Source: Escherichia coli
GTDB taxonomy: Bacteria; Pseudomonadota; Gammaproteobacteria; Enterobacterales; Enterobacteriaceae
Length of the DNA: 64,000 bases
Assembly (NCBI RefSeq): GCF_016026235.1
Contig: NZ_CP065613.1
Direction: 5' to 3' (one strand)
Shown: positions 15,456-21,212 of the stretch, one piece after another
Position numbering within the stretch: position 1 is the first letter of the stretch
Layout of the letters: each line of letters starts with the position of its first letter
The notes under the pieces: generated by a model
What the model was told of the DNA's origin: nothing
Seen by the model: the letters and a program-made list of their open reading frames with translations, nothing else
Database searches by the model: none
Made by a program: the position numbers and the translations under genes

Positions 15456-18032
15456 ATGAAACTAAATGGGAAATTTCCAGTGAAGTTCGTAAAGTATTTT
15501 TTGATCCTTGCAGTCTGTTGCATTCTGCTGGGAGCAGGCTCGATTTATGGCCTATACCGCTACATCGAGCCACAACTGCCGGATGTGGCGACATTAAAAG
15601 ATGTTCGCCTGCAAATTCCGATGCAGATTTACAGCGCCGATGGCGAGCTGATTGCTCAATACGGTGAGAAACGTCGTATTCCGGTTACGTTGGATCAAAT
15701 CCCACCGGAGATGGTGAAAGCCTTTATCGCGACGGAAGACAGCCGCTTCTACGAGCATCACGGCGTTGACCCGGTGGGGATCTTCCGTGCGGCAAGTGTG
15801 GCGCTGTTCTCCGGCCACGCGTCACAAGGGGCGAGTACCATTACCCAGCAGCTGGCGAGAAATTTCTTCCTCAGTCCAGAACGCACGCTGATGCGTAAGA
15901 TTAAGGAAGTCTTCCTCGCGATTCGCATTGAACAGTTGCTGACGAAAGACGAGATCCTCGAGCTTTATCTGAACAAGATTTACCTCGGTTACCGCGCCTA
16001 TGGTGTCGGTGCTGCGGCACAAGTCTATTTCGGTAAAACGGTCGACCAACTGACGCTGAACGAAATGGCTGTGATCGCCGGGCTGCCGAAAGCGCCTTCC
16101 ACCTTTAATCCGCTCTACTCAATGGATCGTGCCGTCGCGCGGCGTAACGTCGTACTGTCGCGGATGCTGGATGAAGGGTATATCACCCAACAACAGTTCG
16201 ATCAGACACGCACTGAGGCGATTAACGCTAACTATCACGCGCCGGAGATTGCTTTCTCTGCGCCGTACCTGAGCGAAATGGTGCGCCAGGAGATGTATAA
16301 CCGTTATGGCGAAAGTGCCTATGAAGACGGTTATCGCATTTACACCACCATCACCCGCAAAGTGCAGCAGGCCGCACAGCAGGCGGTACGTAATAACGTG
16401 CTGGACTACGACATGCGCCACGGCTATCGCGGCCCGGCAAATGTGCTGTGGAAAGTGGGCGAGTCGGCGTGGGATAACAACAAGATTACCGATACGCTGA
16501 AGGCGCTGCCGACCTATGGTCCGCTGCTGCCTGCCGCAGTCACCAGCGCCAATCCTCAGGAAGCGACGGCAATGCTGGCGGACGGGTCGACCGTCGCATT
16601 GAGTATGGAAGGCGTTCGCTGGGCGCGTCCTTACCGTTCGGATACTCAGCAGGGACCGACGCCGCGTAAAGTGACCGATGTTCTGCAAACGGGTCAGCAA
16701 ATCTGGGTTCGTCAGGTTGGCGATGCATGGTGGCTGGCACAAGTGCCGGAAGTGAACTCGGCACTGGTGTCGATCAATCCGCAAAACGGTGCCGTTATGG
16801 CGCTGATCGGTGGCTTTGATTTCAATCAGAGCAAGTTTAACCGCGCCACCCAGGCACTGCGTCAGGTGGGTTCCAACATCAAACCGTTCCTCTACACCGC
16901 GGCGATGGATAAAGGTCTGACGCTGGCAAGTATGTTGAACGATGTGCCAATTTCTCGCTGGGATGCAGGTGCCGGTTCTGACTGGCAGCCGAAGAACTCA
17001 CCACCACAGTATGCTGGTCCAATTCGCTTACGTCAGGGGCTGGGTCAGTCGAAAAACGTGGTGATGGTACGCGCAATGCGGGCGATGGGCGTCGACTACG
17101 CTGCAGAATATCTGCAACGCTTCGGCTTCCCGGCGCAAAACATTGTCCACACCGAATCGCTGGCGCTGGGTTCAGCGTCCTTCACCCCAATGCAGGTGGC
17201 GCGCGGCTACGCGGTCATGGCGAACGGTGGCTTCCTGGTGGACCCGTGGTTTATCAGCAAAATTGAAAACGATCAGGGCGGCGTGATTTTCGAAGCGAAA
17301 CCGAAAGTAGCCTGCCCGGAATGCGATATTCCGGTGATTTACGGTGATACGCAGAAATCGAACGTGCTGGAAAATAACGATGTTGAAGATGTCGCTATCT
17401 CCCGCGAGCAGCAGAATGTTTCTGTACCAATGCCGCAGCTGGAGCAGGCAAATCAGGCGTTAGTGGCGAAGACTGGCGCGCAGGAGTACGCACCGCACGT
17501 CATCAACACTCCGCTGGCATTCCTGATTAAGAGTGCTTTGAACACCAATATCTTTGGTGAGCCAGGCTGGCAGGGTACTGGCTGGCGTGCAGGTCGTGAT
17601 TTGCAGCGTCGCGATATCGGCGGGAAAACCGGGACCACTAACAGTTCGAAAGATGCGTGGTTCTCGGGTTACGGTCCGGGCGTTGTGACCTCGGTCTGGA
17701 TTGGCTTTGATGATCACCGTCGTAATCTCGGTCATACAACGGCTTCCGGAGCGATTAAAGATCAGATATCAGGTTACGAAGGCGGTGCCAAGAGCGCCCA
17801 GCCTGCATGGGACGCTTATATGAAAGCCGTTCTTGAAGGTGTGCCGGAGCAGCCGCTGACGCCGCCGCCGGGTATTGTGACGGTGAAAATCGATCGCAGC
17901 ACCGGGCAGTTAGCTAATGGTGGCAACAGCCGCGAAGAGTATTTCATCGAAGGTACGCAGCCGACACAACAGGCGGTGCACGAGGTGGGAACGACCATTA
18001 TCGATAATGGCGAGGCACAGGAATTGTTCTGA
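15456..18032 (+). CDS. mrcA: penicillin-binding protein 1A (bifunctional glycosyltransferase/transpeptidase)
   Basis: 858-aa ORF with a membrane anchor, glycosyltransferase region (EDSRFYEHHGVD...) and transpeptidase region. The start may instead be the in-frame GTG at 15480, giving the 850-aa form I recall. Confidence 0.95.
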   Translation: MKLNGKFPVKFVKYFLILAVCCILLGAGSIYGLYRYIEPQLPDVATLKDVRLQIPMQIYSADGELIAQYGEKRRIPVTLDQIPPEMVKAFIATEDSRFYEHHGVDPVGIFRAASVALFSGHASQGASTITQQLARNFFLSPERTLMRKIKEVFLAIRIEQLLTKDEILELYLNKIYLGYRAYGVGAAAQVYFGKTVDQLTLNEMAVIAGLPKAPSTFNPLYSMDRAVARRNVVLSRMLDEGYITQQQFDQTRTEAINANYHAPEIAFSAPYLSEMVRQEMYNRYGESAYEDGYRIYTTITRKVQQAAQQAVRNNVLDYDMRHGYRGPANVLWKVGESAWDNNKITDTLKALPTYGPLLPAAVTSANPQEATAMLADGSTVALSMEGVRWARPYRSDTQQGPTPRKVTDVLQTGQQIWVRQVGDAWWLAQVPEVNSALVSINPQNGAVMALIGGFDFNQSKFNRATQALRQVGSNIKPFLYTAAMDKGLTLASMLNDVPISRWDAGAGSDWQPKNSPPQYAGPIRLRQGLGQSKNVVMVRAMRAMGVDYAAEYLQRFGFPAQNIVHTESLALGSASFTPMQVARGYAVMANGGFLVDPWFISKIENDQGGVIFEAKPKVACPECDIPVIYGDTQKSNVLENNDVEDVAISREQQNVSVPMPQLEQANQALVAKTGAQEYAPHVINTPLAFLIKSALNTNIFGEPGWQGTGWRAGRDLQRRDIGGKTGTTNSSKDAWFSGYGPGVVTSVWIGFDDHRRNLGHTTASGAIKDQISGYEGGAKSAQPAWDAYMKAVLEGVPEQPLTPPPGIVTVKIDRSTGQLANGGNSREEYFIEGTQPTQQAVHEVGTTIIDNGEAQELF

Positions 18033-18196: not shown

Positions 18197-18757
18197 TTAC
18201 ACTCGCCCCTGCCCTTTCAACCATTCGCGCACGAGGAACAGCGCGCTGACATTACGCGCTTCGTTGAAGTCAGGGTCTTCCAGCAAATCCATCATATGCG
18301 CCAGCGGCCAGCGCACCTGTGGTAGCGGCTCTGGCTCATCGCCTTCCAGCGATTCCGGGTAGAGATCTTGCGCTACCACGATATTCATTTTGCTGGAAAA
18401 GTAAGACGGTGCCATGCTGAGCTTCTTCAAAAAAGTCAGATCGTTCGCACCAAATCCAACCTCTTCTTTTAGCTCGCGGTTAGCGGCTTCGTAGACGCTT
18501 TCACCCGGATCAATTAATCCTTTCGAAAAACCTAATTCGTAGGATTCAGTTCCCACTGCGTATTCGCGGATCAGGATCAGGTGATCGTCCACAATCGGCA
18601 CAATCATCACTGCTTCCCGGTTGGTTGGACGCATTCGTTCATAAACACGCCGCACGCCATTGCTGAACTCCAGATCCACGCTCTCGACGGTAAACAGTCG
18701 GGAACGGGCTACAGTTTCAACATTCAGAATGGTGGGTTTTTGTAATGATTTGCTCAT
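18197..18757 (-). CDS. nudE: ADP-compounds hydrolase (Nudix)
   Basis: 186-aa ORF MSKSLQKPTILNVETVARSRLF... with a Nudix box (GLIDPGESVYEAANRELKEEVG). Confidence 0.95.
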   Translation of the reverse strand: MSKSLQKPTILNVETVARSRLFTVESVDLEFSNGVRRVYERMRPTNREAVMIVPIVDDHLILIREYAVGTESYELGFSKGLIDPGESVYEAANRELKEEVGFGANDLTFLKKLSMAPSYFSSKMNIVVAQDLYPESLEGDEPEPLPQVRWPLAHMMDLLEDPDFNEARNVSALFLVREWLKGQGRV

Positions 18758-19076
18758 CGTGGGATCTATGCTGTGAAATCAGCGGTTATTGTGCGATATC
18801 GGACACGCTTTCGGCAATGTGAATTGCATGTTATTTACATTTATGTAACTTAATAAATAATCGTCCTCAAATCAAATTAAAAGTCAATAGGTTGAAATAA
18901 CTCCAGGAATTTGCTGATATTCCGCCTTCAGAGGGTTTGCTATGATCAGCGGTTACTGTGATGTGCTTAATGATGCTCAAGTTAAACTCCACGCTTGCCG
19001 ATAGCCAACCGCAGAATCATGTATTGTGTCCGGTGCGACTGACCACGCCTGACAGACTAAGTAAGATGGGGAAAGC

Positions 19077-21212
19077 ATGAGCACCATTGTGATTTTTTTA
19101 GCTGCTTTGCTGGCCTGCTCACTACTTGCGGGATGGCTGATAAAAGTGCGATCCAGACGGCGTCAGCTGCCCTGGACCAACGCCTTCGCGGATGCGCAAA
19201 CGCGTAAACTCACACCTGAAGAACGTAGCGCCGTTGAAAATTATCTTGAGAGCCTGACGCAGGTATTACAGGTGCCTGGCCCAACGGGAGCTAGCGCGGC
19301 ACCGATCTCTCTGGCGCTGAATGCCGAAAGCAACAACGTCATGATGCTGACACACGCTATCACGCGTTACGGCATCTCTACCGACGATCCGAATAAATGG
19401 CGTTACTACCTCGATTCGGTAGAAGTCCACCTGCCCCCTTTCTGGGAACAATACATCAACGATGAGAATACCGTTGAACTGATTTATACCGATTCGCTGC
19501 CGCTGGTTATTTCACTCAACGGTCATACGCTGCAGGAGTACATGCAGGAAACGCGCGGCTATGCCTTGCAACCTGTTCCGTCCACGCAGGCGTCGATTCG
19601 CGGGGAAGAGAGTGAGCAAATCGAGCTACTCAATATTCGCAAAGAAACGCATGAAGAATATGCGCTGAGTCGTCCGCGCGGGCTGCGTGAAGCGTTGCTG
19701 ATCGTCGCCTCCTTCCTGATGTTCTTTTTCTGCCTGATTACCCCGGATGTATTTGTTCCGTGGCTGGCAGGCGGCGCATTACTGCTGCTGGGCGCAGGTC
19801 TGTGGGGGCTATTCGCGCCCCCGGCAAAATCCTCCCTGCGAGAAATTCATTGTCTGCGCGGTACACCCCGTCGTTGGGGATTGTTTGGCGAAAACGATCA
19901 GGAACAGATCAACAATATTTCACTCGGTATTATCGACCTGGTCTATCCCGCACACTGGCAGCCATACATTGCTCAGGATCTCGGTCAACAAACCGATATT
20001 GATATCTATCTCGACCGCCACGTAGTGCGTCAGGGGCGATATCTTTCGCTGCATGATGAAGTAAAAAACTTTCCGTTACAGCACTGGCTGCGCAGTACGA
20101 TTATCGCTGCGGGCTCGCTGCTGGTGCTGTTTATGCTGTTATTCTGGATCCCGCTGGATATGCCGCTGAAATTCACTCTCTCATGGATGAAAGGCGCGCA
20201 GACCATTGAAGCCACCAGCGTAAAACAACTGGCTGACGCTGGCGTGCGGGTAGGCGATACATTGCGTATTAGCGGTACGGGAATGTGTAATATTCGCACT
20301 TCCGGAACCTGGAGCGCGAAAACCAATTCACCTTTTTTACCGTTTGACTGCTCGCAGATCATCTGGAATGACGCCCGCTCATTACCATTACCAGAATCTG
20401 AACTGGTCAACAAAGCGACGGCATTGACTGAAGCAGTTAATCGCCAGCTGCACCCTAAACCGGAAGATGAATCTCGCGTCAGTGCCTCATTACGTTCAGC
20501 GATTCAAAAATCCGGCATGGTATTGCTTGATGATTTTGGCGACATTGTACTGAAGACAGCGGATTTATGTTCTGCCAAAGATGACTGTGTGCGACTGAAA
20601 AATGCGCTGGTCAATCTCGGCAACAGTAAAGACTGGGACGCGCTGGTAAAACGCGCCAACGCCGGGAAGCTCGATGGCGTGAATGTGTTATTACGCCCGG
20701 TGAGTGCGGAATCGCTGGATAACCTGGTGGCAACCTCCACCGCGCCGTTTATCACGCATGAAACGGCGCGAGCGGCACAATCACTAAACAGTCCGGCCCC
20801 CGGCGGATTCCTGATTGTCAGCGACGAAGGCAGCGATTTTGTTGATCAGCCCTGGCCTTCGGCATCACTTTACGACTACCCGCCGCAAGAACAGTGGAAC
20901 GCTTTCCAGAAACTGGCACAAATGCTGATACATACGCCGTTTAACGCCGAGGGTATCGTCACAAAAATCTTCACTGACGCCAATGGTACGCAGCATATTG
21001 GCCTTCATCCAATCCCGGATCGTTCCGGCCTGTGGCGCTATCTCAGCACCACATTGCTGCTACTGACGATGCTGGGTAGCGCCATTTACAATGGCGTACA
21101 GGCCTGGCGTCGTTACCAGCGTCATCGCACTCGCATGATGAAGATTCAGGCCTATTATGAAAGCTGCCTGAACCCGCAACTGATCACCCCTTCAGAAAGC
21201 CTTATCGAATAA
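19077..21212 (+). CDS. igaA: inner-membrane attenuator of the Rcs phosphorelay (IgaA/YrfF)
   Basis: 711-aa ORF MSTIVIFLAALLACSLLAGWLIKVRSRRRQLPW...; length and sequence match IgaA. Confidence 0.93.
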   Translation: MSTIVIFLAALLACSLLAGWLIKVRSRRRQLPWTNAFADAQTRKLTPEERSAVENYLESLTQVLQVPGPTGASAAPISLALNAESNNVMMLTHAITRYGISTDDPNKWRYYLDSVEVHLPPFWEQYINDENTVELIYTDSLPLVISLNGHTLQEYMQETRGYALQPVPSTQASIRGEESEQIELLNIRKETHEEYALSRPRGLREALLIVASFLMFFFCLITPDVFVPWLAGGALLLLGAGLWGLFAPPAKSSLREIHCLRGTPRRWGLFGENDQEQINNISLGIIDLVYPAHWQPYIAQDLGQQTDIDIYLDRHVVRQGRYLSLHDEVKNFPLQHWLRSTIIAAGSLLVLFMLLFWIPLDMPLKFTLSWMKGAQTIEATSVKQLADAGVRVGDTLRISGTGMCNIRTSGTWSAKTNSPFLPFDCSQIIWNDARSLPLPESELVNKATALTEAVNRQLHPKPEDESRVSASLRSAIQKSGMVLLDDFGDIVLKTADLCSAKDDCVRLKNALVNLGNSKDWDALVKRANAGKLDGVNVLLRPVSAESLDNLVATSTAPFITHETARAAQSLNSPAPGGFLIVSDEGSDFVDQPWPSASLYDYPPQEQWNAFQKLAQMLIHTPFNAEGIVTKIFTDANGTQHIGLHPIPDRSGLWRYLSTTLLLLTMLGSAIYNGVQAWRRYQRHRTRMMKIQAYYESCLNPQLITPSESLIE

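Follow-up and report, generated by a model that had tools for sequence, protein, structure and literature searches.

Short co-directional open reading frames (ORFs) that carry a Shine-Dalgarno (SD) sequence, precede a regulated gene and overlap RNA able to pair downstream are known from thrL, hisL, pheL, tnaC, mgtL, speFL, mdtU and toiL. A 20-codon ORF upstream of igaA in Escherichia coli resembles them in each of these features. However, its start codon and SD are not conserved, it has no run of regulatory codons and no terminator or attenuator, it shows no conservation of the coding or arrest-peptide kind, and the ribosome evidence for it is weak. Other described systems also come close to parts of this locus. 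The rpoS leader is likewise long (that of igaA is predicted at ~125 nt) and has an upstream conserved segment complementary to the SD and AUG; in igaA, by contrast, the predicted pairing lacks covariation, is not known to be opened by any sRNA or protein and is seen in one sub-clade only. Sigma-70 promoters of the galP1 type have an extended -10 (TGn) element, with TG at -15/-14, one free base, TAnnnT and no recognisable -35, and a candidate site upstream of igaA has this form. It differs from them in having strongly conserved upstream blocks at fixed spacing, which suggest extra factors or a tandem promoter. Finally, the 20-codon ORF is like the sORFs of "pervasive translation" (PMC11188072; bioRxiv 10.1101/2021.07.02.450978) in that it stands in Table S4 of the former among the potentially translated ismORFs without a coding signature; it differs from them in that the DNA beneath it is strongly conserved, for non-coding reasons.

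We studied this ORF in a 64,000-nt stretch of the E. coli chromosome (the window; NZ_CP065613.1), in which a position plus 3,507,392 gives the coordinate in MG1655. The window carries mrcA (15456-18032, plus strand), nudE (18197-18757, minus strand) and, divergent from nudE, igaA (yrfF; 19077-21212, plus strand), which is followed by yrfG and then hslR. The nudE-igaA spacer (18758-19076, 319 nt) is identical to that of K-12 MG1655 and at least 99% identical in 5425 genomes, and a 501-nt query around the ORF matched many E. coli genomes at 100% identity. The annotations of K-12 MG1655, of the O157 record and of the E. coli RefSeq rows listed show no feature in this interval. We found no relevant report in the literature on an igaA uORF, leader, sRNA or RcsB box. 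IgaA is the essential brake on the Rcs envelope-stress phosphorelay; when its expression falls modestly, E. coli becomes mucoid, resistant to phage and able to evade macrophages (PMC3861542, PMC5495878, PMC11541549). Mucoid strains with Rcs switched on arise, for instance, from insertions of IS1 and other IS elements at -47, -43 and -20 relative to igaA (PMC3861542, PMC5495878, PMC11541549). These sites correspond to about 19030, 19034 and 19057 of the window, all downstream of the ORF. Their phenotypes place the igaA promoter before about 19030 and show that a small fall in igaA expression already affects the cells, so that a leader peptide acting on igaA would be of consequence. The IS-insertion genetics has no bearing on the ORF itself.

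An earlier note on this DNA had described an ATG at 18942 preceded by GAGGG at a plausible spacing, 20 codons and a TAG about 70 bp before igaA, and all of this is exact in the sequence. The ORF spans 18942-19004 on the plus strand, with its ATG at 18942-18944, 20 sense codons (MISGYCDVLNDAQVKLHACR) and a TAG at 19002-19004, which leaves a gap of 72 nt to the igaA ATG at 19077. The SD-like GAGGG (18931-18935, plus strand) ends 6 nt before the ATG and is specific to Escherichia. A frame of this kind is within chance expectation: in 2000 dinucleotide-preserving shuffles of the spacer (18758-19076), a plus-strand ATG ORF of 20 codons or more occurred in 85%, and in 14% such an ORF had an SD-like 4-mer placed 4-14 nt upstream. 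Several other ORFs, overlapping and 20-41 codons long, occur in the 319-nt spacer on either strand. A collection of about 15 billion proteins did not contain the exact 20-aa peptide, and neither this peptide nor the product of a 40-codon frame that overlaps it had a family match in Pfam or NCBIfam at E values up to 10.

Conservation was then followed across the family. A scan for the IgaA N-terminus gave 80 species-level Enterobacteriaceae loci, 76 of which were aligned with the window (77 in all) over 330 nt upstream of igaA. The ATG of the ORF is kept in 30 of the 77, namely in Escherichia, Salmonella, part of Citrobacter and one distant group whose frame stops after 6-12 codons, and 17 have the complete 20-codon ORF through to the aligned TAG. 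The remaining 47 species have ATC, ATT, ACT, AAG or another non-start triplet at this place. The SD-like motif varies too: few columns of the spacer are less conserved than those of GAGGG, where identity to E. coli is 0.1-0.8 per column and relatives have GGTGG, AGTGA, CAGGC, TTGCC and others. Neither the start codon nor the ribosome-binding site is thus conserved in the way expected of a leader peptide or uORF. Escherichia, Salmonella and several Citrobacter do keep the ATG together with a purine-rich upstream stretch. In several Citrobacter the frame is cut short by a stop at codon 10. One species of the 77, Intestinirhabdus alba, has the whole igaA-upstream region swapped for unrelated GC-rich sequence.

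The frame itself was found to be kept in many genera, as one would look for in a coding sequence, yet it is kept equally where it has no start. Twenty-three of the 47 start-less species, with ATC, ATT or ACT in place of the ATG, retain an open 20-codon frame that ends at the same TAG. In none of them does another in-frame start lie there or close by, though in one, L043, the third codon is of the start type; the frame is thus maintained irrespective of whether ribosomes could translate it. It stays open because a conserved non-coding block tolerates no indels, and not through selection on a peptide. The conservation of a frame in relatives is accordingly no evidence of coding where the DNA is constrained for other reasons.

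The substitution pattern agrees with this. In Escherichia, Salmonella and Citrobacter, the mean column entropy of codons 2-20 is 0.41, 0.20 and 0.30 at the first, second and third codon positions, compared with 0.32, 0.21 and 1.02 for codons 2-100 of igaA in those species; the ORF gave 0.86, 0.91 and 0.72 across the 51 species without indels. No excess of third-position substitutions of the kind seen in igaA was therefore detected in the ORF. By the Nei-Gojobori method against 18 relatives, the ORF frame had a pS of 0.136 and a pN of 0.210 (pN/pS 1.54), and the second and third frames had pN/pS values of 1.00 and 0.70. The pS of igaA is 0.56 when pooled, a pool that includes indel-distorted pairs, and about 0.5 in indel-free pairs of Escherichia, Salmonella and Citrobacter, so that the nominally synonymous sites of the ORF are about fourfold more constrained than those of igaA, indicating that the constraint acts on nucleotides. 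The independent analysis of Fesenko et al. (PMC11188072) points the same way: the row for this exact ORF in their Table S4 gives a cluster size of 1874, a dN of 0.128, a dS of 0.023 and a dN/dS of 5.5 within Escherichia, and assigns the ORF to the class "Intergenic", which lies outside the coding-signature set, and not to "Entero67K". With the 23 start-less open frames, the pN/pS of 1.54 and the published dN/dS, we see no signature of a frame kept by translation, either for its peptide or for regulatory codons.

What is conserved around the ATG looks different. An extended -10 element of sigma-70 promoters has an information profile of the TGnTAnnnT type. At the aligned position, 76 of the 77 species have TGnTAnnnT, which in the window is TGcTATGAT (18938-18946, plus strand) and contains the ATG of the ORF; Intestinirhabdus alba (L044) is the only species in which the motif and the leader block discussed below are both lost with the rest of the region. 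The column counts over TTTGCTATGATC (18936-18947), out of 77, are T 75, T 68, T 76, G 76, c 48, T 76, A 77, t 56, g 39, a 53 and T 76. The TG and the bases T-12, A-11 and T-7 are near-invariant. Differences between species fall at -13 and at -10 to -8, the hexamer occurring as TATGAT, TATCAT, TATTAT, TACTAT, TAAGCT or TATGCT and the G of the ATG being present in 39 of the 77. With TG at -15/-14 and TAnnnT at the correct spacing, this sequence has the form of an extended -10. We suggest that 18938-18946 is most likely the extended -10 of an igaA promoter, here called P2, with the ATG of the ORF as its middle. A -35 is not recognisable at P2, and it is for this reason that a scan for two-hexamer promoters gave no match there. 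Transcription from P2 would be predicted to start at about 18951-18955, 6-9 nt past the hexamer, so that the leader would be about 125 nt long and lack the ATG of the ORF. The placement of the ORF in the igaA leader, as the earlier note had it, is thus only partly right: its ATG lies inside the conserved motif and may be outside the main transcript.

Further upstream, the blocks AAAAGTCAATAGGTTGAAAT (18879-18898) and GGAATTTGCTGATAT (18907-18921), both on the plus strand, are near-invariant in the 77 species. A consensus scan identified a candidate promoter, P1, made up of TTGAAA-18 nt-GATATT (18892-18921, plus strand), whose 18-nt spacer and 19-nt distance to the P2 hexamer are fixed in 76 of the 77. 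These blocks may be a tandem promoter P1, or sites at which an activator or other factor assists P2; their conservation is more even than a simple -35/-10 pair would require, which suggests transcription-factor sites or a tandem promoter. A transcript from P1, which we infer would start near 18928, would contain the ORF. Sites for sigma-E, CpxR and LexA and an RcsAB box were also considered for the upstream blocks by informal comparison with their consensus sequences, and none fitted both the spacing and the conservation.

A published table supplies the only ribosome evidence for the ORF. In BL21, the corresponding row of Table S4 reports 10 retapamulin initiation reads, 56 footprints and footprint coverage of 100% of the ORF, while no MG1655 row for it, with either retapamulin or Onc112, is among the Table S4 rows listed (PMC11188072). 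For scale, MG1655 retapamulin reads in this source are 202 for thrL, 3481 for cydX, 21 for hisL and 8 for ecnA, and the 10 reads in BL21 fall in the range of some accepted small proteins of the same table (hisL 21, ecnA 8, yadW 7). The authors of that study state that the majority of such ORFs are without signs of selection and may be spuriously translated (PMC11188072). Ribosome density over the ORF is not zero, yet it is weak, was reported in one strain only, and belongs to an ORF which its source classes as intergenic with a dN/dS well above one. The full footprint coverage in BL21 suggests that some transcripts include the ATG, and low-level translation from longer transcripts may occur in Escherichia.

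Taken together, these results make it probable that the 20-codon ORF is a fortuitous frame lying over the igaA promoter and leader, rather than a conserved leader peptide or a small-protein gene. RNA polymerase at TGcTATGAT would start 6-9 nt downstream and produce a leader of ~125 nt lacking the ATG. The rest of the ORF would cross a leader block (18968-19004) in which constraint on nucleotides, with indels not tolerated, could hold the frame open. Longer transcripts, possibly from the candidate P1, would carry the ATG with the Escherichia-specific GAGGG, and the few initiation reads in BL21 would then reflect low-level, unselected translation of such P1-type transcripts. The earlier note had left the choice between a leader peptide or small protein and chance; chance is favoured, and the first two are unsupported given that the start and SD are not conserved and no coding pattern was seen. 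The evidence indicates that the ORF itself is most likely not a control element of igaA.

Some observations stand against this reading. The motif at 18938-18946, taken for a -10 on the strength of its conservation, has no recognisable -35, and the upstream blocks, which are even more conserved, could be the sole promoter. If they were, the mRNA would contain both the ATG and GAGGG, and the -10-like motif would fall at about +12 to +18 of the transcript. The BL21 reads with full coverage of the ORF, the retention of the ATG in Escherichia, Salmonella and part of Citrobacter, and a leader pairing without covariation in a leader no more stable than shuffles also count against it.

That pairing concerns the part of the ORF downstream of its start. 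The region 18968-19004 is conserved at all three codon positions of the ORF. It contains a leader block (18968-18998, plus strand), UAAUG-A-UGCUCA-A-GUU-AAA-CUCCA-CG-CUUGC, which is complementary to the igaA translation initiation region (TIR; 19061-19089, plus strand), made up of the SD UGGGG (19067-19071), the AUG (19077-19079) and the first codons, and in which AAGTAAGATGGGGAAAGCATG is near-invariant. By minimum free energy and partition function in E. coli, the leader and the TIR are predicted to form 24 bp over the SD and start codon with a pairing probability of about 0.9. In this fold UAAUG (18968-18972) would pair with CAUUG (19085-19089), UGCUCA (18974-18979) with UGAGCA (19078-19083), GUU (18981-18983) with AGC (19074-19076), CUCCA (18987-18991) with UGGGG (19067-19071) and CUUGC (18994-18998) with GUAAG (19061-19065). 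Compared with leaders shuffled upstream of -20, TIR pairing has a z of 2 to 3.5 only in the clade with this block in common (Escherichia, Salmonella, Citrobacter, Enterobacter and Lelliottia); in Klebsiella, Raoultella, Kluyvera, Pluralibacter and Trabulsiella z is about zero or negative. In the 25-species alignment a standard pair is kept in 80% of cells, versus 31-48% with slid partners, a difference that is inflated by the derivation of the structure from one aligned sequence. Covariation is negligible (0.070, versus 0.057 in shuffles and 0.065 at a slide of -3), and the RNAalifold consensus holds just a weak, invariant 10-bp long-range pairing of -2.1 kcal/mol. The fold of the whole leader is no more stable than its shuffles (z = 0.1), which together with the weak RNAalifold pairing indicates that the leader is not a notably stable structured RNA. 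We tentatively propose, as a possibility to be held at somewhat below even confidence, that the leader block pairs with the igaA SD and start-codon region and so keeps IgaA synthesis low or adjustable.

An attenuator was also looked for. No terminator-like site was found between the ORF and igaA, and the Rfam search returned no family, just two chance minus-strand matches below threshold (E = 1.6 and 1.9), indicating that a leader peptide would have no attenuator partner here. The reverse complement of GCCGATAGC had no meaningful copy elsewhere in the window. As other candidates, a Rho utilisation site was rejected on a C/G ratio that peaked at just 1.33, and complementarity to the sRNAs RprA and MicF amounted to just 5-6 bp.

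Among the other readings, the one that survives best is a lineage-specific regulatory uORF. It holds that transcripts from an upstream promoter carry GAGGG or GGTGG-N6-AUG, and that ribosomes entering there would cross the block complementary to the TIR (18968-18998), stop at 19004, open the pairing and raise igaA translation, the act of translation mattering and not the peptide. Such action would need no coding signature, the ORF covers precisely the segment whose pairing with the igaA SD and AUG is predicted, and the ATG with its purine-rich stretch in Escherichia, Salmonella and several Citrobacter, as well as the BL21 initiation reads and footprints of Table S4 (PMC11188072), would be in line with it. 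However, 47 of the 77 species keep the block without the start, among them most members of the clade in which the predicted pairing is strongest (Enterobacter, Lelliottia), several Citrobacter carry the early stop at codon 10, and the ATG sits in a motif that is conserved like a -10 hexamer. MG1655 also has no row for it in either initiation data set among the Table S4 rows listed (PMC11188072). We consider this reading unlikely.

A second reading, which we rate as slightly less probable still, is that the upstream frame which is translated is a different one. A 40-codon ORF in another frame (18958-19080, plus strand) begins with GTG at 18958, has in-frame ATGs at 18961, 18970 and 18973, and ends in a TGA that overlaps the igaA ATG as ATGA; it appears in old annotations as "hypothetical protein c4168". 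Starting at GTG 18958, ATG 18961 or ATG 18973, a frame of 35-40 codons could couple its termination to re-initiation at igaA in E. coli through the ATGA overlap, which is present in the window. Its initiation reads in Table S4 come from two inhibitors in MG1655 (10 with retapamulin, 8 with Onc112) and amount to 50 in BL21 (PMC11188072), and the ATG at 18973 is kept with the first 14 codons (MLKF[ND]S[TI]LADSQPQ) in about 45 species. Nevertheless, it has a pN/pS of 1.0 and varies least at its third codon positions (0.457), and its Table S4 row gives the class "Intergenic" and a dN/dS of 3.1 (PMC11188072). The C-terminal length ranges from 11 to 37 codons among the species that keep the ATG, and owing to a 2-nt indel neither the C-terminus nor the ATGA overlap is conserved even within Escherichia, the overlap being gone in its other species. 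Moreover, no SD precedes 18973, and the ATGCTCA sequence is equally well explained by its complementarity to the UGAGCA of the igaA start.

The two upstream frames and the pairing could also be combined: the anti-RBS block (18968-18998) would mask the igaA SD and AUG, and translation of a short upstream frame, either the 20-codon ORF in Escherichia and Salmonella or the 18973 frame in the wider clade, would unmask igaA. We give this combination an equally slim chance. If it were true, the set-point of the Rcs phosphorelay would be tied to promoter choice and translation status.

Most validated small proteins of E. coli are hydrophobic or membrane-like. We regard it as very improbable that the ORF encodes a functional 20-aa protein acting in trans, for example on the Rcs system: it is present in essentially all E. 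coli, in line with its cluster size in Table S4 (PMC11188072) and the near-identity of the spacer among the 5425 genomes, but the peptide is not of that membrane-like kind, has no family match, shows no purifying selection by our pN/pS and codon-position entropies or by the same table's dN/dS, and loses its start in most genera.

With the fortuitous frame as the preferred reading, the by-product of the analysis is a comparative map of the igaA control region, consisting of the candidate extended -10, the two invariant upstream blocks and an invariant octamer, together with a testable hypothesis in which the ribosome-binding site of igaA is masked by a conserved part of the leader. This conserved architecture is a modest lead in its own right. 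The octamer, GCCGATAG, includes the TAG of the ORF (18997-19004, plus strand); it is invariant in all 25 sequences of the smaller alignment (A1) and conserved at about 85-90% across the 77 species. GCCGATAG is invariant even in clades where the remainder of the leader has diverged, and the predicted pairing does not explain it.

Further conserved elements were observed outside the ORF. On the minus strand, the conserved ATTGTGCGATA and CTTTCGGCAATG form TTGCCG-18 nt-CACAAT (18788-18820), which lies some 25 nt ahead of the nudE ATG and is a plausible promoter for that gene. TATTTACATTTATGTAAC at 18832-18849 contains an inverted repeat, TTACAT-TT-ATGTAA (18835-18848), that is highly conserved in the 77 species. 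It also supplies the -35 of TTTACA-16-AATAAT, a third match to the promoter consensus (10 of 12), the -10 of which is not conserved. Within igaA, codons 6-8 (ATT TTT TTA) contain a run of seven T (19092-19098). A T7-to-T6 frameshift in this run has been reported in the viable mucoid, phage-resistant mutant HT022, although igaA is essential (PMC11541549).
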